Shown here: positions 38,270 through 46,560 of the stretch, piece by piece
Layout: every line of letters starts with the position of its first letter
Numbering within the stretch: position 1 is the first letter of the stretch
Source: Capsulimonadaceae bacterium
Lineage (GTDB): Bacteria; Armatimonadota; Armatimonadia; Armatimonadales; Capsulimonadaceae
DNA length: 64,000 nucleotides
Assembly (NCBI GenBank): GCA_965215505.1
Contig: OZ244065.1
Span: 5,984,001-6,048,000, forward strand
Direction of reading: 5' to 3'
Program-made: the position numbers and the translations under genes
The notes under the pieces: generated by a model
Database searches by the model: none
What the model was told of the DNA's origin: nothing
What the model saw: the letters and a program-made list of their open reading frames with translations, nothing else

Positions 38270-39439
38270 ATGAGCAACTACCAGCCCCAGAAATCGGACA
38301 AATTCACGTTCGGCCTGTGGACCGTCGGCAACCCCGGCGTGGACCCCTTCGGTGGGGCCGTCCGCACCCCCGTCACGCCCGTCGAGCGCGTCCGCAGATT
38401 AGGCGAACTCGGTGCCTACGGCGTCAACCTCCATGACAACGACCTCGTCCCCTTCGGCGCGACCGCCGCCGAGCAGGACGCCATCGTCAAAGAATTCAAG
38501 CAGGCGCTTTCAGACAGCGGCGTCGTCTGCGCCATGGCGACCACGAACCTGTTCACCCACGCCGTCTTTAAGGACGGCGCGTTCACCTCAAATGACCCCC
38601 AGGTGCGCGCCCTCGCCCGGCAGAAGGTCATGCGCTCCATGGACCTCGGCGTCGAGCTTGGTGCCCCCATCTACGTCTTCTGGGGCGGGCGCGAGGGCGT
38701 CGAGATCGAGGCCTCCAAGGACCCCGTGACCGCCGCCAAGCGCTTCCGGGACGCCATCGACTTCTTCTGCGAGTATTCGCAGTCGCAGGGCTACAACCTC
38801 AAGTTCGCCCTGGAGGCCAAGCCGAACGAGCCGCGCGGCGACATCTACCTGCCGACGACCGGCGCGATGCTCGGCTTCATCGCGACTCTGGCCCACCCGG
38901 AGATGGTGGGCGTCAACCCCGAGTTCGCGCACGAGACGATGGCCGGCCTGTCCTTCTACCACGCCGTCGCCCAGGCGCTCGAAGCCGGCAAACTGTTCCA
39001 CATTGACTTGAACGGCCAGAAGCCGGGGCGCTACGACCAGGACTTCCGGTTCGGCCAGGAGGACTACAAGCAGAACTTCTTCCTGGTGAAGCTGCTGGAA
39101 GACTACGGCTATGAAGGCCCCAAGCACTTCGATGCTCACCCCCTGCGGACCTCGGACCCCGACGACGTGTGGGAATTCGCCAAGGGCTGCATGCGGACGT
39201 ACCTGATCTTCAAGGAGAAGGCCGCCCAGTTCAACGCCGACCCGGAGATCCAGGCCCTGGTGGCCGAAACCTACAAGCAGGATGCCGACCTGGACCCGAT
39301 CCTGGACGGCAAGTTCAGCCCCCAGAACGCCCAGGCCTTGAAGGGCATGACCTTCGACGCCGAAGCCCTGGCCGCTCGGCCGCTGCCCTACGAGAAGCTG
39401 GACCAGCTCGTCTTCGATCTGCTGCTCGGTGTCCGGTGA
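38270..39439 (+). CDS. xylA: Xylose isomerase
   Basis: [54 protein letters not shown]. Confidence 0.95.
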
Positions 39440-39471
39440 CTGCCCTGAGCCTCGCCCCTGCGTGTTTCGGC

Positions 39472-39495
39472 GTAGGGGCGGGGGGACCCCGCCCT
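39472..39495 (+). repeat. GTAG-type REP
   Basis: GTAGGGGCGGGGGGACCCCGCCCT after the xylA stop. Confidence 0.65.
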
Positions 39496-39565
39496 CTCGC
39501 TCTATCTTCTCCTGTCTGCCGCGTTCACGCTTTTTCGTGGCCTCATCGGGTACAATATCTCCATC

Positions 39566-40024
39566 TTGGCCCAACTTCGGCGGTTACAACTCATCGTCTG
39601 GTGTCTGGTCCTCCCGCTCCTCGGGACTGGGCTGCCCCGTGAATCCGTCTGGCAGTGCGCCCACGCCGCCCAATCCATCACGCTCCTGCCTGCCTCCCCC
39701 AACGCCATGCCCTGCCGTATGGCGCACCGGACGCCTATGGCCTGCTGCCGGACTGCCTCCTCCGAGACGCCGCAGCGGGCCTCCCTGCACGCGCCCCCCT
39801 GCAAGCCGACCGTCACGCCGGCTGCGCCTACGCCTGTCGCCCGCCTTACCGCCGCCTTTGCACTGCTGATCGCTGCCGATGTGGCCCCCGCTGACTTCCC
39901 GCAGGCCCGTCCGCTTTTGCTCCATTCCCCGGTGGTCACGGCCGCCCCGCGCGGCCCGCCGATCCCTCTTGCCTCCCTGACCCACGCCTCCGCCCACGGC
40001 CTCCGCGCGCCCCCACTTTCCTGA
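39566..40024 (+). CDS. Cys-rich exported leader protein (DUF2946/CruR-like) with C-terminal RGPP and RAPP motifs
   Basis: Hydrophobic N-terminus; WQCAH, MPCRM, MACCR, PPC; ends PRGPP...HGLRAPPLS. Start codon uncertain. Confidence 0.65.
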   Translation: MAQLRRLQLIVWCLVLPLLGTGLPRESVWQCAHAAQSITLLPASPNAMPCRMAHRTPMACCRTASSETPQRASLHAPPCKPTVTPAAPTPVARLTAAFALLIAADVAPADFPQARPLLLHSPVVTAAPRGPPIPLASLTHASAHGLRAPPLS

Positions 40025-40100
40025 TTCCGTCGTGTCCCGGCGACCGCCGCCGACCCGATGCTTCTCCACGTTACCACTCACCCTCACAGGAGACAGAATC

Positions 40101-41927
40101 TTGAAACACGCGATGCCGCGCGGCTGCCGGGCGTTTGCCCGCGCCGCCATTCCCCTTGCCTTTCTTTCGCTCGCCCCGGCCGCCCACTCCGACCCGAAGG
40201 CCGACCACCAGCGCGGTGCGGACGCCATGCCCGGCATGAGCATGACCGGAATGTCGTCCTCCGTTGACCTCAATGACCCCATGAGCCAGGAGGCGTCGGG
40301 CACGGCCTGGCTCCCCGCGTCCTCGCCGATGTACGGCAAGATGGTCATGGGCAAAAATGGCGACATGCTGATGCTCCACGGGGCTGCCATGGCCCGCTAC
40401 ACCGACACCGGTTCCAAGCGCGGCGACCGCCGCTTCGACGTGCCCAACTGGTTCATGGGCATGTACAGCCACCCCCTGGATGCCAGGTCGCAGCTCGGCC
40501 TGCGCGGCATGTTCAGCCTCGACCCGGTCACCGAGGGCGGCTACGGCTACCCGTTGCTGTTCCAGACCGGCGAGTCCTGGCACGGTCAGCCCCTCCACGA
40601 CCGGCAGCACCCGCATGACCTGGTGAGCGAGCTTGCGGCCACCTATTCGCACCTCCTTGGGGGCGGGCGGTCGGCCTACCTTTACGTCGGCTACCCCGGT
40701 GAACCCGCCCTGGGTCCCCCCACCTACATGCACCGGCTGCTGGCCTATGACCTGGCGGATGCGCCCGTCGGGCACCACTGGCAGGACGCGACCCACATCA
40801 CCTTCGGCGTCGCCACGGCGGGCCTGAACTTCGGCAGCAAGGTCAAGGTCGAGGCGAGCGACTTCACCGGCCGCGAGCCGGACGAGAACCGCTATTCCTT
40901 CGACAAGCCCCGCTTCGACAGCTACAGCGGGCGATTGTCGTATAACCCGGACGCTAACGATGCCCTGCAATTCTCCTACGGCTTCATCAAGAACGCCGAG
41001 GGGGACGGGGCCAATCAGCACCGCATCACCGCCTCCTGGCTGTATAACCGGCCCCTGGGCGAGGACGCGAACTTCACGACGGCATTGGTGTGGGGGCAGA
41101 ACAACCTGACGACCGAGGGCAAGACCAACTCCTATTTGGCCGAGGCCGACTACCAGCACGGCCGAGACACCCTTTTCACGCGCATCGAGAACATCCAGAA
41201 GTCTGGACACGAGCTGGTCCTGCCCGAAGACAGCCTGCAAGGGCGCAAGTTCACCCTGGGCGCGTACACGCTGGGCTATGTGCGTGACCTGACCCACGGG
41301 ACGGGCATTGACACCGGCCTCGGCTTCGCCGTGACGGCGAACACCAAGCCCTCCGCCCTGAACGCCGACTACGGTACGGGCACCCCGGTCTCGTTCCAGA
41401 TTTACCTCCGCCTGCGGCCCTCGCGCATGAAGATGGACGGCATGAAGATGGACGGCATGAAGATGGACGGCATGAAGATGGACGGCATGAAGATGGACGG
41501 CATGAAGATGGACGGCATGAAGATGGACGCTGCTCCCCCTGCGGCCAAGCCGGACGAGGCGCCCGGTGACGCAAAGGCGATGCCGGGAATGGACATGGCC
41601 GCGCCGATGCCTGGCACCGCGCCGACATCCGCGCCCATGAAGATCGCCGCGACTACGGCCGCCGCGCCCAGAGCGGGCGACAACCCGCTGACCATCAGCA
41701 TCACCGACGCGGACGGCAAGCCCGTCGCCGGGGCCTCCATCACAACAAGCGTGGCGATGACCAGCATGGACATGGGCACGACGCACCCGTCCGTCACGGA
41801 GAAGGGCGGCGGCCAGTACGCCGCGACCGTCAATTTCAGCATGGCCGGCCCCTGGCGCGTACAGGTGAAAGTCACCGCGCCGGGCCGGAAGCCCCAGACC
41901 AAAGCCTTCGATTTCAGCGCCAAATAG
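40101..41927 (+). CDS. Met/His-rich outer-membrane beta-barrel-like protein with (MKMDG)7 linker and a YtkA/FixH-like C-terminal domain
   Basis: AGGAG plus TTG start; signal peptide; ASGTAWLP, DRQHPHD, GHHWQDATHI; MTSMDMG...YAATVNFSMAGPW. Confidence 0.8.
   Translation: MKHAMPRGCRAFARAAIPLAFLSLAPAAHSDPKADHQRGADAMPGMSMTGMSSSVDLNDPMSQEASGTAWLPASSPMYGKMVMGKNGDMLMLHGAAMARYTDTGSKRGDRRFDVPNWFMGMYSHPLDARSQLGLRGMFSLDPVTEGGYGYPLLFQTGESWHGQPLHDRQHPHDLVSELAATYSHLLGGGRSAYLYVGYPGEPALGPPTYMHRLLAYDLADAPVGHHWQDATHITFGVATAGLNFGSKVKVEASDFTGREPDENRYSFDKPRFDSYSGRLSYNPDANDALQFSYGFIKNAEGDGANQHRITASWLYNRPLGEDANFTTALVWGQNNLTTEGKTNSYLAEADYQHGRDTLFTRIENIQKSGHELVLPEDSLQGRKFTLGAYTLGYVRDLTHGTGIDTGLGFAVTANTKPSALNADYGTGTPVSFQIYLRLRPSRMKMDGMKMDGMKMDGMKMDGMKMDGMKMDGMKMDAAPPAAKPDEAPGDAKAMPGMDMAAPMPGTAPTSAPMKIAATTAAAPRAGDNPLTISITDADGKPVAGASITTSVAMTSMDMGTTHPSVTEKGGGQYAATVNFSMAGPWRVQVKVTAPGRKPQTKAFDFSAK
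41427..41531 (+). repeat. 15-bp tandem repeat x7 encoding MKMDG
   Basis: ATGAAGATGGACGGC six times, plus one near-perfect copy. Confidence 0.97.
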
Positions 41928-41978
41928 AGACGACTGTGCGCACACACGACGACGCCACAGCGCCTCGGAAGGAACACC

Positions 41979-42254
41979 ATGAAGACACTCCTACTGACGA
42001 CCGCCGCCCTCGCGGCGCTGACGAGCGGGGCGACAGCCGCCCCCGCTCACGCCCCCAAGCCGGGCGCGGTCAAGGCCGCCCTGATCTGCCCCGTCTCGGG
42101 CGACAAGATCGCCTCCGCCGCCAAAGCCTACAACCACGAGACCTACAAGGGCAAGACCTACTACTTCTGCTGCCCGGACTGCAAGCCCGCCTTCGACAAG
42201 AACCCCGGCAGGATCATCGCCGCCGCCGCCAAGGGCAAATACCGGAAGATGTGA
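41979..42254 (+). CDS. Exported YHS-domain protein
   Basis: Signal peptide; CPVSG...YKGKTYYFCCPDCKPAFDKNP. Confidence 0.88.
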   Translation: MKTLLLTTAALAALTSGATAAPAHAPKPGAVKAALICPVSGDKIASAAKAYNHETYKGKTYYFCCPDCKPAFDKNPGRIIAAAAKGKYRKM

Positions 42255-42292
42255 CCGTTGGACATGATCTCTCACGCGAAAGGAAGAACCCG

Positions 42293-42541
42293 ATGAACAA
42301 GATGCTCGCACTCAGCGCACTCGCGCTGACCCTGCTCCCCTTGACCGCGAACGCCGCGCCGACACGCCACGCCAAGACGGCCAAGACGGCCGCGACCATG
42401 TACCAGTGCCAGTCCTGCCACATGAAGGTCACGGCGGCGGTCGCTAAGAAGGACGGCTACAAGGACCCGATGGACGGCGGGAAGCTGGTCCCCGTCACGG
42501 CGGCCCCGACCGGCAAGGCGACGGGCGGCACGAAAATGTAA
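42293..42541 (+). CDS. Small exported metal-binding-like protein with CQSCH motif
   Basis: AAGGAAG upstream; signal peptide; YQCQSCHM...KDPMDGGKLVP. Confidence 0.7.
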   Translation: MNKMLALSALALTLLPLTANAAPTRHAKTAKTAATMYQCQSCHMKVTAAVAKKDGYKDPMDGGKLVPVTAAPTGKATGGTKM

Positions 42542-42616
42542 GCCGCTCGGCAGCCCCGGTCATGGACCGGGGCTGCCACTCCTGCCCCCTGACAGCGACC
42601 ATGGGGAGACAGAGAC

Positions 42617-43756
42617 ATGGAAACGATGCCCCATCAACTGGCCTGGCTGTGGCGCAGCCTCTTCGAGTCGGCGGCGATGTTCTGGGAGGTCCTGTGGGCG
42701 CTCGTCCTCGGCTTCGCCGTCTCCGCCCTGCTGCAAGTGTTCGTCAGCAAGGAGCGCATGACGCAGGCTCTGGGCCGGGCGGGGCCGCGCGAGATGGCCC
42801 TGGCGACCGCCTTCGGCGCGGCCTCTTCCTCCTGCTCCTATGCCGCCGTCGCGGCGGCCCGGACCGCCTTCCAGAAGGGCGCGGCCCTCGCCCCGACCTT
42901 GGCCTTCATGTTCGCCTCCACGAACCTCGTCTTCGAGCTGGGGTTCGTCCTGTGGCTCCTGATGGGCTGGCAGTTCGTGCTGGCCGAGACGGTCGGCGCG
43001 TTCGTCCTGATCGCCGTCATGTGGCTGTTGGTCACGCTGACGCTGCCGCACGGACTGGAAGACGAGGCCCGCGCCCACGAGGAGGCGAAAGATGGCGACC
43101 ACGGAGGACACGACCACGGAGGGCATGACCACGGAGGGCATTACATGGGCGGCGGCAGGCTGAGAGCCGTGGCCGACGCCTTCGCGATGGACTGGGGCAT
43201 GCTGTGGAAGGAGATGCTCCTCGGCTTCATCATCGCCGGGTTTCTAGCCGTGCTGGTGTCCAACGGGATGTGGCGGGCTTTGTTCCTGACACACTCCGGC
43301 TCGCCCGCCCTGCGGCTGCTGGAAAACGCCGTCGTCGGGCCGCTGATCGCCGTGCTGTCTTTCGTCTGCTCCATCGGGAACGTCCCGCTGGCGAGCATCC
43401 TGTGGTCGGGCGGCATCTCCTTCGGCGGCGTGATCGCCTTCATCTACGCCGACCTGATCATCGTCCCGCTCATCATCGTCTACGGCAAGTATTACGGGCG
43501 CCGCGCCGCCGCCTACATCACCCTCGTTCTGTTCGCCTCCATGGTGATCGCAGGGCTGGTCGTGGACCTGCTGTTCGGCACGCTGCACCTGATCCCGACC
43601 GGCCCGCGCCCCGCCTCCGCGCTCTCGCAGGCGCACTTCGCCTGGAACTACACGACCTGGCTGGACCTCCTCGCCCTCGCCGCGGCGGCCTTCCTCGCCG
43701 CCGCCCACCTCCGCAGTATGAAAGCCATGACGCACGAACACCACCATCATCATTGA
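42617..43756 (+). CDS. Permease (ArsP_1/DUF318 family), His-rich
   Basis: GAASSSCSYAA, FMFASTNL, FVCSIGNVP; (DHGGH)3 loop; HEHHHHH C-terminus. Confidence 0.85.
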   Translation: METMPHQLAWLWRSLFESAAMFWEVLWALVLGFAVSALLQVFVSKERMTQALGRAGPREMALATAFGAASSSCSYAAVAAARTAFQKGAALAPTLAFMFASTNLVFELGFVLWLLMGWQFVLAETVGAFVLIAVMWLLVTLTLPHGLEDEARAHEEAKDGDHGGHDHGGHDHGGHYMGGGRLRAVADAFAMDWGMLWKEMLLGFIIAGFLAVLVSNGMWRALFLTHSGSPALRLLENAVVGPLIAVLSFVCSIGNVPLASILWSGGISFGGVIAFIYADLIIVPLIIVYGKYYGRRAAAYITLVLFASMVIAGLVVDLLFGTLHLIPTGPRPASALSQAHFAWNYTTWLDLLALAAAAFLAAAHLRSMKAMTHEHHHHH

Positions 43757-43831
43757 CTCAGGCCGTTAGAGAGCCTGGCCGCAAGGGTAAAACGTCGGCA
43801 GCGCGCCGCCGCGCGAGAAAGTTGGTGTCCC

Positions 43832-44359
43832 ATGATTCTGCGCCTCTCGCTGGAACTGCCGGAAGACCTGGCCTACATCAAGATCACGCGGATATTAGGC
43901 CGGGCGCTGCTGGAACACCTACAGGTTGACGCGACCGACATCAACGACATCGAGATCCTGGTCGGCGAGCTGTGTTCCAACGTCCTGCGCCACGCCCAGG
44001 GCCACGACGAGCTTTTCCATGTCGTGCTGGAATACTTCAGCGACCACGTCGGCATCATGGTCCAGGACCGGGGGCAGGGCTTCTCGTTCAAAGACGTGCC
44101 CCAGGCCGGGACGAGCCGGGCGGACTTCGGGGGCGGCGAGCGCATCGGCGGCTACGGCATGACCCTGATCCAGAAGCTCTCCGACCACCTGGAGTTCCGC
44201 CGGACCGACCCGCACGGCACCACCGTCTGTGCGGAGAAGAAGCTGCACTACCGCACGGACGCCGCCGCCGCCGCCGCCGACCGGCTGAACAAGTCCGAGG
44301 GGCATGCCGACGTGACGACTTCCTACGAGGAGGCCCCCACTCCCGGCCCCTGTGATTGA
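43832..44359 (+). CDS. RsbW-like anti-sigma factor / HATPase_c protein
   Basis: ELCSNVLRHA, DRGQGF, GGYGMTLI, GTTV. Confidence 0.82.
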   Translation: MILRLSLELPEDLAYIKITRILGRALLEHLQVDATDINDIEILVGELCSNVLRHAQGHDELFHVVLEYFSDHVGIMVQDRGQGFSFKDVPQAGTSRADFGGGERIGGYGMTLIQKLSDHLEFRRTDPHGTTVCAEKKLHYRTDAAAAAADRLNKSEGHADVTTSYEEAPTPGPCD

Positions 44360-44413
44360 CAGTCTCGGCCCCGAGTCGGGTATACTAACCGGAAAAGTTT
44401 GGGAGGGGCCGAT

Positions 44414-45580
44414 TTGGAACAGACCATCACGCTGGGGGGGAATAAGAAAGCGCGCCGCGCTTACGGCTTCGATGAAGTGGCTCTGGTGCCCTCCGCCCTG
44501 TCAGTTGACCCGCGCGACGTGGACACCGCCTGGACCCTGGGGCGGCACCGGTTTGCCATCCCCATCGTCGCGAGCGCGATGGATGCCGCAGTCAACCCCC
44601 GTGTGGCCGTCGAGATGACCCGTCTCGGCGGCTTCGCTGTCTTGAACGGCGAGGGACTCCAGACCCGCTACGAGGACGCCGAGGGCATCCTGCTGGAGAT
44701 CGCCGAGGCCGGGGCGGAGGGCATCATCGAGAGGATGCAGAAGCTCTACACCGCCCCCGTCCGCGAGGACCTGGTCGCGCGCCGCATCCAGGAGATCAAG
44801 GCGGGCGGCGGCTTCGCCGCCCTCGCCTCCATCCCGCCGACCGCCCCGCGCCTGGCCGCCGTCGCCGTCGAGGCGGGCGCGGACCTGTTCGTCGTCTCCA
44901 GCCAGGTCGCCACCGCCCGCCACTACTCCACCCACGCCGGCACCGTGGACCTCGCCCGGTTCTGCCGCGACTCGCCCGTCCCGGTCATGGTCGGCAACTG
45001 CGTCTCGTTCCAGGGGGCGACCGAGCTGATGGAGGCGGGAGCCGCCGCCCTCCTCGTCGGGGTCGGGCCGGGCGCGATCTGCACCACCCGCACCGTCCTG
45101 GGCGTCGGCGTCCCCCAGGTCACCGCCGTCGCCGACTGCGCCGCCGCCCGCGACGCCTACAACGAGCGCACGGGCCGCTACGTCCCCCTCCTTGCCGACG
45201 GCGGCATCAAGAACGGCGGCGACCTGGCGAAAGCCGTCGCCGCCGGTGCGGACGCCGTCATGCTCGGGTCGTCGGTCGCCGCCTCCTCCGAGGCCCCCGC
45301 CCCCGGCTACTCCTGGGGCATGGCGATGTCCAACGCCGACCTGCCGCGCGGGACGCGCATCAAGGTCAACGTCATGGGGACGCTGCGCGAGATCTTGCTC
45401 GGCCCCGCCCACCGCGATGACGGCACCATGAACCTCGTCGGCGCCCTGCGCCTCTCCATGGCCACCTGCGGCGCGAAGACCATCCAAGAGATGCAGCAGG
45501 CCGAGATGGTCGTCGCCCCCCAGATCCAGACCGAAGGCAAGTCCATGCAGCGCGCCCAGCACGTCGGCCAGGGACGGTAA
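44414..45580 (+). CDS. guaB: IMP dehydrogenase-family protein (short GuaB3-like form)
   Basis: [45 protein letters not shown]; upstream of guaA. Confidence 0.85.
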
Positions 45581-45593
45581 AGGGCAATCCGGT

Positions 45594-46007
45594 ATGTCGA
45601 AGTATGAGCCTGCTCTGCTTCCCGAAGTAGAAGGTGTGGAAGTGTTGGCCCTCGGCAAACTCACAGGTAGCGATGGTGAGTCTCCTTTCTCGATAAAGGA
45701 TTGGGCCGAGTTTGCGGTGACTGCTTCTGTTCAGGCCGATGAACACCGGACTCAGCATATCGCAGGACTCTGGCGCGGATTGCCTCCAGCCGGACAGGCA
45801 AGATGCCATGTGCCGCCTTTTGCACTGAAGTTTTTCGCCGCAGGTGAGATGTTTCTGGAAGCATCCCTCTGTTGGCAATGCAACAACATCTGGATTCAGG
45901 AAGGGGAGACATTTTCCGTCTACGAGTTTGACGGCAGAGCAGAAGTCTCTCGGGAGCTGCTTGCTGTCTTCAAAACTGTCAGCAAGGTGGAGAAGACGAA
46001 ACAATGA
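45594..46007 (+). CDS. Hypothetical protein (lower GC)
   Basis: ARCHVPPFAL...SLCWQCNN Cys/His pattern. Confidence 0.65.
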   Translation: MSKYEPALLPEVEGVEVLALGKLTGSDGESPFSIKDWAEFAVTASVQADEHRTQHIAGLWRGLPPAGQARCHVPPFALKFFAAGEMFLEASLCWQCNNIWIQEGETFSVYEFDGRAEVSRELLAVFKTVSKVEKTKQ

Positions 46008-46240
46008 CTATCACATTGAGACCGGAAACGGAAGCCCGCCTGCGGGAAAGGGCGTTGCGCGACGAAGCAGATCCGAGCGAACTCGCTGACGCCCTCTTAT
46101 CGAATGTACTGGTGGACGATACCCGGCGCATGAGTAAGTCTGAGATAGAAGCCTCTTACCGAGCAATGGCTGCGGATGAAGAACGAGAAGCGGAAGCCAT
46201 GGAGTGGAGCGAAGGCACTCTGGGGCATGTTTTTAGATGA
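46004..46240 (+). CDS. Putative antitoxin
   Basis: 78 aa, acidic, SYRAMAADEEREAEAMEW; ATGA overlap with the MazF gene. Confidence 0.75.
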   Translation: MTITLRPETEARLRERALRDEADPSELADALLSNVLVDDTRRMSKSEIEASYRAMAADEEREAEAMEWSEGTLGHVFR

Positions 46241-46560
46241 AACGCGGTGAAGTCTGGTGGGTCGCCTTCGATCCGTCCGTCGGCGGTGAAATCCAGAAAA
46301 CGCGCCCTGCTGTCATCGTCAGTAACGACAGCGCGAACGCTTCATTGAATCGGCTACAAGTCGTTGCCGTATCAAGTCAGGTAAACCGAGTATACGCGGC
46401 GGAAGCCATCGTGACTTTGAACGGCCAGGTGCGGAAGGTCATGGCGGATCAACTCACGACCGTCAGCAAACTACGGGTCGGCGGCAAGGTAGGCGAACTC
46501 TCGGACGCTGATATGGCGAACGTAGATCGAATTATCAAGTTTCAGTTGGGGATGTCTTAA
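46237..46560 (+). CDS. mazF: MazF/PemK endoribonuclease toxin
   Basis: MKRGEVWWV.FDPSVGGEIQKTRPAVIVSND...DQLTTVSKLR. Confidence 0.93.
   Translation: MKRGEVWWVAFDPSVGGEIQKTRPAVIVSNDSANASLNRLQVVAVSSQVNRVYAAEAIVTLNGQVRKVMADQLTTVSKLRVGGKVGELSDADMANVDRIIKFQLGMS

Follow-up and report, generated by a model that had tools for sequence, protein, structure and literature searches.

The window analysed here is a stretch of 64,000 nucleotides (nt) that covers positions 5,984,001-6,048,000 of the single contig representing the 6.18-Mb genome (66.5% guanine plus cytosine, GC) of a Capsulimonadaceae bacterium in the Armatimonadota. At positions 39566-40024 of the window lies a gene for a small protein, here called the leader, which is followed by a gene for a β-barrel protein rich in histidine and methionine. 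We conclude that the leader is probably a copper-responsive ribosome-arrest leader of the same kind as CruR and CutF, from an unrelated sequence family and with a second, internal RxPP core, and it is best read as gating the barrel, as suggested by its sequence and by analogy with these two systems. The original prediction for this DNA was of a metal-sensing translational switch, and this reading is supported by the conservation of the motifs, the copper-linked gene contexts and a CruR- and CutF-like architecture. The genes on which it was built are also present as described: a leader of about 150 amino acids with a hydrophobic N-terminus, cysteine clusters and an ending with RGPP and RAPP; a stop codon 76 nt before the TTG (40101) of a gene that fuses the barrel to (MKMDG)7 (41425-41529) and to a YtkA-like domain (PF13115); and, within 41979-43756, genes for a YHS protein, a CxxCH mini-protein and a His-rich DUF318 permease.

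The codon usage of the leader gives little indication of a gene. Its codon log-likelihood is 0.02 per codon compared with 0.42-0.58 for the neighbours, although none of the other five frames scores higher, and the GC content at third codon positions is 0.81 compared with 0.89-0.94 in the neighbouring genes. While the codon bias is weak, the question is settled by comparative conservation. A six-frame search of 60 related genomes identified full-length, stop-free relatives in 11 of them (E 1e-53 to 7e-3), including 8 of the 23 genomes from the same genus and three other genera of the family, with no convincing match in the sister family. The ratio of nonsynonymous to synonymous substitution rates was 0.22-0.32 in four pairs of leaders, compared with 0.10-0.28 for the barrel. 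Judged from these comparisons, the leader is a real and conserved gene under purifying selection. It is 152 amino acids long in the window, while the other 11 genus- and family-level homologs have 157-168 amino acids. The family appears to be small: a profile search of 1.84 billion representative proteins retrieved 53 relatives (E≤1e-3). Searches against Pfam and NCBIfam assigned no family to the leader, and none of 33 homologs in a second protein collection had a Pfam domain or a name other than “hypothetical protein”. The window leader is present in a public protein collection only as a product of 95 amino acids (P0032) that begins at an internal start, so that the source annotation misses the export helix as well as C31, C50, C60 and C61. 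A metagenome scan gave no match with the single leader as query and five loci with the clade alignment. On three metagenome contigs (L121, L122 and L123), a deletion has removed the 3' half of the leader together with most of the barrel; up to about codon 87 the leader is intact, after which it is out of frame and runs into the final 40 or so codons of the YtkA domain, with the anti-sigma gene next. Since these contigs carry deletion remnants, the cassette seems to be dispensable in some relatives.

The conservation pattern in an alignment of 55 leaders, with identities down to 23%, suggests that the protein consists of four parts: a hydrophobic helix, a cluster of thiol and thioether residues, a poorly conserved spacer, and a C-terminal module with two cores. 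The leader has six cysteines in total, five of which are conserved, and ends in ...APRGPPIPLASLTHASAHGLRAPPLS before the stop codon. Residues W29, C31, M48, C50, C61, C79, R147, P149 and P150 are invariant in the alignment, and P24, P49, M58, C60, P81, R129, P131 and P132 are conserved in at least 90% of the sequences. The C-terminal module has the form R-[GP]-P-P ... L-R-[AG]-P-P, followed by two to three residues and the stop codon. Loss of the two motifs from orthologs had been named beforehand as a possible refutation of the predicted switch; both are kept. Among the 33 database homologs, 31 end in LR[AG]PP plus two to three residues, while one has RSPP and one runs on past the motif. The codons of the terminal motif vary synonymously between species, and the constraint thus acts on the peptide.

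The spacing of these landmarks was compared in 38 rows, which include at least five duplicate loci; 7 of the 33 database proteins lacked a landmark and were left out. The last cysteine, C79, is separated from R129 by 50-52 residues and from R147 by 68-71 residues in 36 of the 38 rows. The two cores are 19 residues apart in 34 rows and 18 in the other four, and the tail after the terminal PP is two residues long in 36 rows and three in two. In contrast to these C-terminal spacings, those between the N-terminal cysteines differ by as much as 11 residues. The spacer between the last cysteine and the cores is thus kept in length, while its sequence is variable. The structure predicted by AlphaFold2 from the 55-sequence alignment contains only a helix at residues 2-22, the remainder being without secondary structure at a predicted local distance difference test score (pLDDT) of 50-65. 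The model as a whole has a pLDDT of 61 and a predicted template modelling score of 0.22.

The barrel is located directly 3' of the leader in nine relatives, and comparison of the loci indicates that only these two genes form a conserved pair. Conservation of the gene neighbourhood, which had been suggested as a check, holds for the leader and the barrel, but not for the YHS, mini-protein and permease genes. These are absent at this position in the closest relative (G012, locus L016), where an anti-sigma HATPase gene follows about 94 nt after the barrel, which suggests that they represent a lineage-specific insert in the window (41928-43831). Other genes were found next to the leader in other relatives. 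A cupredoxin gene (PF00127) is placed between the leader and the barrel in G010, and a cupredoxin gene also follows the leader at the metagenome locus L124. In G005, the leader precedes a cupredoxin homolog, three CxxCH mini-proteins that are paralogs of the 80-amino-acid protein of the window, and genes for an RND pump and an OEP protein. An ArsP permease follows directly after the leader at the metagenome locus L120. In G024, genes for a CsoR repressor (PF02583) and a permease are divergent from the leader, and the spacer with the leader promoter contains a TACCC-N5-GGGTA box. By their sequence families, the genes headed by the leader are always copper-linked, and the leader behaves as a portable module that has been placed before three different downstream genes (barrel, cupredoxin and ArsP permease). 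As the original prediction had also noted, no metal-sensing regulator was found near the leader among 16 open reading frames (ORFs) scanned in the 25-54 kb region of the window, and the only CsoR of the genome is located far away (G000:3670826).

The two systems that the leader most resembles are described as follows. CruR (Bp2923) of Bordetella pertussis is an exported DUF2946 protein of about 145 amino acids with a CXXC motif, the prototype of PF11162. Its RAPP is located three residues from the end, with a conserved spacing of 45 residues from CXXC to RAPP, and arrest at this motif blocks Rho-dependent termination before a TonB receptor gene until copper relieves the arrest (PMC9426467). 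The arrest was later demonstrated by toeprint (PMC12992588). CutF of Rhodobacter capsulatus is likewise exported, senses periplasmic copper via a CxxxC motif and stalls at a C-terminal PPP, whereby a stem-loop over the ribosome-binding site (RBS) of cutO is melted (PMC9973294; 10.1101/2025.02.05.636593). The leader shares with CruR a length of about 150 amino acids, a putative N-terminal export signal (here the hydrophobic helix), a cysteine motif, a poorly structured body, a RAPP two to three residues from the C-terminal end and a conserved spacing between the cysteines and RAPP. In both cases the gene is the first of an operon in which the second encodes an outer-membrane metal transporter, here a predicted barrel, and the intergenic region is GC-rich and biased towards C over G. 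It differs from CruR in that the conserved cysteines follow the pattern C-x18-C-x9-CC-x17-C rather than CXXC, in that there is no PF11162 or profile similarity, in the second, internal RxPP core, and in the 68-71 residues from the last cysteine to RAPP compared with 45 intervening residues in CruR. Furthermore, the target is a porin-like barrel and not a TonB-dependent receptor, the gene context points to detoxification and not to uptake, and the host belongs to the Armatimonadota and not to the Proteobacteria.

With CutF, the leader has in common that it is a cysteine-containing and apparently exported protein with a proline-rich stalling end, neighbours related to copper detoxification, and a predicted stem that shields the RBS of the next gene and could be opened by a stalled ribosome. 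It differs in that the core is RAPP/RGPP and not PPP, in that it has no CxxxC, and in that the helix which would shield the RBS is limited to part of the family. A published rule for CutF-like proteins includes a length below 150 amino acids, PP within the last 15 residues, a signal peptide and a same-strand neighbour within 1000 nt (PMC9973294). The leader has the PP, the neighbour (at 76 nt) and a putative signal peptide, and its 152 amino acids are just above the length limit. More generally, Fujiwara et al. described RAPP and RGPP as the most robust arrest cores, with stalling also at RxPP where x is G, A, S or P, and reported that the two motifs are depleted from proteomes, enriched at the C-termini of the small exported products of upstream ORFs, and found, in many phyla, in small exported proteins encoded ahead of genes related to TonB or to copper (PMC12992588). 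No entry from the Armatimonadota was found in the searched part of the supplements to that paper, and our literature search identified no paper that pairs this phylum with RAPP or with arrest peptides. Like ApdA, ApdP, ApcA and SecM (PMC12992588) and a set from Streptomyces lividans (PMC10951233), the leader is a small and apparently exported protein that carries R-[AG]-P-P close to its C-terminal end and whose gene precedes the one that it would regulate. It differs in preceding genes for metal handling and not for protein localisation, in having two cores in one peptide, and in that its arrest is a prediction.

A GGGTAyAAT-like box is located 6-10 nt before the start codon of the leader in 12 of 12 homologous loci, which suggests that the leader is the first cistron of a leaderless-type transcript. 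GGGTAYAAT occurs at 154 sites in the whole genome compared with about 30 expected (about 5x), and at 67 of the 154 sites an ORF of at least 60 codons begins 4-12 nt later, from which leaderless transcripts seem to be common in this organism. No sigma-70 consensus promoter and no intrinsic terminator on the plus strand were found inside 39500-44500, and no Rfam family matched 39300-44000 at E≤1. The leader and the intergenic region together have a C/G ratio of 1.85, which places them in the top 0.04% of the 535-nt windows of the genome. The last 150 nt of the leader plus the intergenic region have ratios of 1.5-2.5 in 10 of 10 loci, compared with 1.0-1.17 in the barrel gene. The intergenic regions alone, which are 45-208 nt long across the relatives, have ratios of 1.24-3.5 in all ten loci. 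The genome also encodes Rho. In the window, the region around the leader stop codon is predicted to form a long-range helix (40016-40031/40092-40107) with the Shine-Dalgarno (SD) and start region of the barrel, with a duplex energy of -13.3 kcal/mol, and of -20.8 kcal/mol in the closest relative. Placing a ribosome at RAPP raises the predicted mean unpaired probability of the barrel initiation region from 0.31 to 0.55. Fold z-scores for the whole region are mostly unremarkable (-0.7 in the window); a value of -7.3 at locus L021 is due to an inserted palindrome.

These features can be combined into a model, each step of which is a proposal. The leader would be translated as the first cistron of a leaderless-type transcript, and its N-terminal helix would take the nascent chain to the Sec translocon, so that the five-cysteine cluster (C31, C50, C60/61 and C79) would leave the ribosome and cross the membrane during synthesis of the C-terminus. 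Arrest would then occur at R147-A-P-P, Pro149 occupying the P site of the ribosome and Pro150 the A site, as in other RAPP peptides. At this stage R129-G-P-P, 18 residues back, would be deep in the exit tunnel, and it may have acted as a first pause. The arrested ribosome would cover the last codons and the stop codon. Because the covered bases are predicted to pair with the SD-to-start region in the window genome, the arrest would free the initiation site of the barrel, and would at the same time prevent Rho from gaining access to a tract that is very rich in C and poor in G. Copper on the exposed cysteines would set the duration of the arrest. The set that is switched on would be one for detoxification of the envelope, consisting of the porin-like His/Met barrel with its YtkA domain and, in this genome, also the YHS protein, the CxxCH protein and the ArsP permease. 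Given that the leader belongs to the class of arrest leaders, we moderately favour this CutF-like direction, in which copper prolongs the arrest and switches on envelope detoxification.

Several observations weigh against a copper-responsive arrest leader of this kind, beginning with the weak codon bias mentioned above. The original prediction had likened the leader to DUF2946-type upstream ORFs, and membership in this family was not borne out. With a hidden Markov model (HMM) search against PF11162 (cut-off 23.7 bits), the leader gave no match at E≤0.1, and none of 28 further leaders from relatives and analogs matched at E≤1. Nothing in the window genome exceeded the cut-off, and the position of the leader was absent even from the sub-threshold matches; 6 of 151 Armatimonadota genomes have proteins above the cut-off, none of them in the family of the window. 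A comparison by hhalign of a 12-sequence leader alignment with five PF11162 proteins from the Armatimonadota, a small set with marginal scores of 23.7-30.6 bits, gave a probability of 0.5% (E 0.12, 4 columns). By both the HMM and the profile comparison, the leader is unrelated in sequence to CruR and CutF, and it contains neither of their metal-binding motifs, CxxC or CxxxC. The terminal arginine is replaced by proline or histidine (PAPP or HAPP) in 2 of the 12 genus-level homologs, in G005 and G010, and analogous leaders in the Verrucomicrobiota end in HAPP and not RAPP, while the arginine is reported to be irreplaceable in ApcA, ApdA, ApdP and SecM (PMC12992588). At the level of the RNA, pairing of the stop region with the RBS is better than leader-window controls in only 3 of 10 loci. 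Controls were as good as the real duplex in 9% of cases in the window, 0% in L016 and 7% in L022, compared with 28-87% in the other seven loci, and a family-wide helix was therefore rejected. Unmasking of the RBS by a ribosome is predicted in only 4 of 10 loci. The predicted RBS-sequestering fold is thus found in the window lineage and about three others of the ten, but not throughout the family. Finally, the C-richness could be a by-product of Pro- and Ala-rich coding, and the basis for the direction of the copper response is the gene context only.

In another reading, the device is the same but its sign is opposite, as in CruR. The barrel would then be a pore for copper uptake, and arrest by default would block Rho until copper releases the ribosome, after which Rho would terminate transcription in the intergenic region and the barrel would be off. 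The high C/G ratio of the leader and intergenic region, the C-rich intergenic regions in all ten loci and the presence of Rho all fit this scheme, and since unmasking of the RBS is not predicted in 6 of 10 loci, a mechanism at the level of transcription would be more general. The 50-52 residues between the last cysteine and the first RxPP core are also close to the 45 of CruR (PMC9426467), and two other RAPP-ending ORFs of the genome precede TonB-dependent receptors, as CruR does. Against this stand the neighbours in relatives, which resemble detoxification genes (CsoR and a permease in G024, RND and OEP in G005), the helix predicted to mask the barrel initiation region in the window genome, and the possibility that the C-richness merely reflects Pro and Ala codons. 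Within the class of arrest leaders, the copper-repressed direction has somewhat less than an even chance, and over all readings we consider it possible but rather unlikely.

In a further reading, the leader would be an ordinary exported copper-binding protein, such as a chaperone or a metallothionein-like partner of the barrel, and the RxPP segments would be non-regulatory binding or linker segments. The occurrence of HAPP in the Verrucomicrobiota analogs and of PAPP or HAPP in two genus-level relatives argues that the canonical arrest core is not obligatory. Five cysteines, of which C60 is conserved in at least 90% of the sequences and the others are invariant, together with methionine and histidine would also suit the binding of Cu(I), and purifying selection is expected for such a protein. 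However, no fold is predicted for it in spite of the 55 aligned sequences, the spacer is kept in length while its sequence varies, and the motif is fixed two to three residues from the stop codon. Moreover, the leader is joined to three different downstream genes, and the reported depletion of RAPP and RGPP from proteomes and their enrichment at the C-termini of small exported proteins (PMC12992588) also count against it. We consider the ordinary copper protein improbable. Still less probable, and in our view very unlikely, is a secretion monitor like SecM, ApdA or ApdP, which would respond to Sec or YidC activity or to envelope stress, the pulling force of export releasing the arrest and impaired export prolonging it. 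The N-terminal export signal and the C-terminal RAPP correspond to the layout of monitoring substrates (PMC7897499, PMC10987492), and an anti-sigma-type HATPase gene follows the locus. In contrast, none of the downstream genes scanned in the window and the related loci belongs to a Sec or YidC family, the invariant cysteines and methionines have no role in such a monitor, and every gene context is copper-linked.

The protein encoded by the second gene ends in a YtkA domain (PF13115, E 1.3e-14; about 41631-41870), which is separated from the barrel by the (MKMDG)7 linker, encoded by a perfect tandem repeat of 15 nt x 7.0. This repeat looks like a recent expansion, as the linkers in the orthologs are Met-rich, non-repeated and of varying length. 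The AlphaFold2 model of the barrel contains about 16 strands and has a mean pLDDT of 69, with about 80-90 in the strands and about 90 in the YtkA domain. The best Foldseek matches were OmpF, OmpC and OmpK36 (E about 1e-10, target template modelling score 0.62-0.69, about 400 columns, 9-14% identity), and the modelled barrel thus resembles the 16-stranded general porins at the level of the fold. It differs from them in its His/Met blocks, its Met-rich N-terminus and its C-terminal YtkA domain, and it belongs to no porin family in Pfam. No sequence relative of the barrel part was found in Pfam, NCBIfam or the PDB, and its neighbours in the ESM Atlas were only unnamed clusters. Many His/Met positions are invariant in 31 barrel sequences from several phyla, for example in the blocks LHDRQHPH and GHHWQD.TH, which are located in loops modelled with low confidence. 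The family is widespread, with 453 stretches confirmed by tblastn, mostly from the Verrucomicrobiota but also from the Armatimonadota and other phyla. A literature search on YtkA, outer membrane, copper and porin, covering titles and the openings of abstracts, found no paper that describes such a barrel.

R[AG]PP is present within 12 residues of the end in 129 of the 55,230 stop-to-stop frames of the window genome, and five of these 129 also have an N-terminal hydrophobic stretch. Three small frames among these five are the window leader and two ORFs upstream of genes for TonB-dependent receptors. One encodes an exported protein of 118 amino acids ending in ...SPRAPPRLS (G000:C1:3453609-3453965; L110:1010-1366) and is placed directly upstream of the receptor gene. 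The other encodes an exported protein of 116 amino acids ending in ...SPRAPPVCLLNC (G000:C1:5541265-5541615; L111:966-1316) and directly precedes a Plug-domain receptor gene followed by exbB-exbD-tonB. No Pfam family was assigned to either, and they are probably further arrest leaders of this genome.

Among 80 loci of the barrel family that were kept, the upstream sequence was 900 nt or longer in 75. Of these 75 loci, 68 have, within 1.4 kb upstream of the barrel, a same-strand frame that contains three or more cysteines (including CC) and carries PP within its last 15 residues, compared with control values of 2/75 on the antisense strand, 3/63 farther upstream and 2/57 downstream. One type of leader, found at 40 loci, ends in AHAPP plus three residues and has TGPP about 20 residues before, and another type, ending in RPPVPPPR-x, is found at 14 loci. 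A comparison of the Armatimonadota leaders with the HAPP leaders of the Verrucomicrobiota by hhalign gave a probability of 0.2%, with only the C-terminal 30 columns aligned, and does not support descent from a common ancestor. A tiny exported ORF that ends in a Cys-rich run (e.g. ...ADCCGGGRCCSGGPCCAR) recurs without annotation between the RPPVPPPR-x leader and the barrel in the Verrucomicrobiota (L046, L053, L054, L056, L067, L070, L076, L078, L079, L095 and L108). Another ORF, at L114 (G094:C1:4019692-4020018, minus strand), is of the PF11162 type with CFYC and has an in-frame TAG nine codons before ...SSRAPPAI and the stop codon; possible explanations are a pseudogene, a sequencing error and read-through.

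The copper-sensing arrest leaders studied so far are two proteobacterial examples of one Pfam family. The arrangement suggested here would extend the same logic, with an export signal, a thiol cluster, a spacer of conserved length, RAPP and a stop codon, to a barely cultured phylum and an unrelated sequence. The new features would be the second, internal RxPP core at a fixed distance and the partnership with an uncharacterised porin-like barrel rich in conserved histidine and methionine, a family that is thereby flagged as a candidate copper channel. This would suggest a general and repeatedly invented coupling of the metal status of the envelope to gene expression that does not involve a transcription factor. 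With 152 codons and a 76-nt spacer, the locus is also a compact test case for how metal binding outside the ribosome may tune arrest inside it, and for the joint action of translational unmasking and Rho termination. A more far-reaching interpretation is that the leader is a convergent copper-sensing arrest peptide with two checkpoints, that the gated, His/Met-lined porin represents a new family of TonB-independent copper channels, and that at least three unrelated types of Pro-terminated, Cys-rich leaders (RAPP, HAPP and PPVPPP) have been recruited to this family in different phyla. The first RxPP pause would then retain the chain at the moment at which the last cysteine has come clear of ribosome and translocon, and at the second pause, located at the stop codon, the copper state of the five cysteines would determine whether the next gene is translated and read through past Rho. 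Taken as a whole, we regard this interpretation as speculative and doubtful.

The features of the locus are listed below. The leader is preceded by a xylose-isomerase-like gene that ends at 39439. The AGGAG of the barrel gene is located 8 nt upstream of the TTG start codon, which is also used in the closest relative.

Features of the leader locus, with positions in the window.
Feature	Position	Strand	Description or evidence
-10-like promoter box GGGTACAAT	39548-39556	+	9 nt before the leader TTG
Leader gene	39566(TTG)-40024(TGA)	+	152 codons; export helix, five-Cys cluster, length-conserved disordered spacer, two RxPP cores
N-terminal signal peptide or signal anchor, residues 1-23	39566-39634	+	hydrophobic in all homologs; model helix pLDDT about 88
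Putative Cu(I)-binding cluster W29-x-C31, A47-M-P-C50, M58-x-C60-C61, C79-x-P81	39656-39802	+	conservation in 55 sequences
Internal arrest-like core R129-G-P-P	39950-39961	+	R-[GP]-P-P across the family
Terminal arrest core R147-A-P-P, then Leu-Ser-stop	40004-40015	+	conservation in 55 sequences
5' arm of predicted long-range helix (last two codons, stop, 7 nt beyond)	40016-40031	+	minimum free energy folds, duplex energy
Intergenic region, 76 nt, resembling a Rho utilisation (rut) site, C-rich and G-poor	40025-40100	+	32 C, 16 G
Barrel initiation region: SD AGGAG 40088-40092, spacer, TTG 40101	40088-40107	+	3' arm of the helix = 40092-40107
Barrel gene	40101(TTG)-41927	+	608 codons; signal peptide, Met-rich N-terminus, porin-like His/Met-rich barrel, (MKMDG)7 linker, YtkA-like Ig domain
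Exported YHS-domain protein	41979-42254	+	PF04945, E 2e-9
80-amino-acid exported protein with CQSCH motif	42299-42541	+	no family above cut-off
ArsP_1 (DUF318) permease, His-rich loops, C-terminal HEHHHHH	42617-43756	+	PF03773, E 1.5e-64

The permease shows weak similarity to the SO_0444 family of Cu/Zn efflux proteins (57 bits, cut-off 300), and the next gene after it encodes an RsbW-like anti-sigma HATPase. Farther downstream, a low-GC island at 45500-46560 (0.56 compared with 0.66-0.73 around it) contains a gene for a MazF/PemK-type toxin at 46237-46560 (PF02452), which is preceded by an ORF of 78 amino acids at 46004-46240 that probably encodes the antitoxin.

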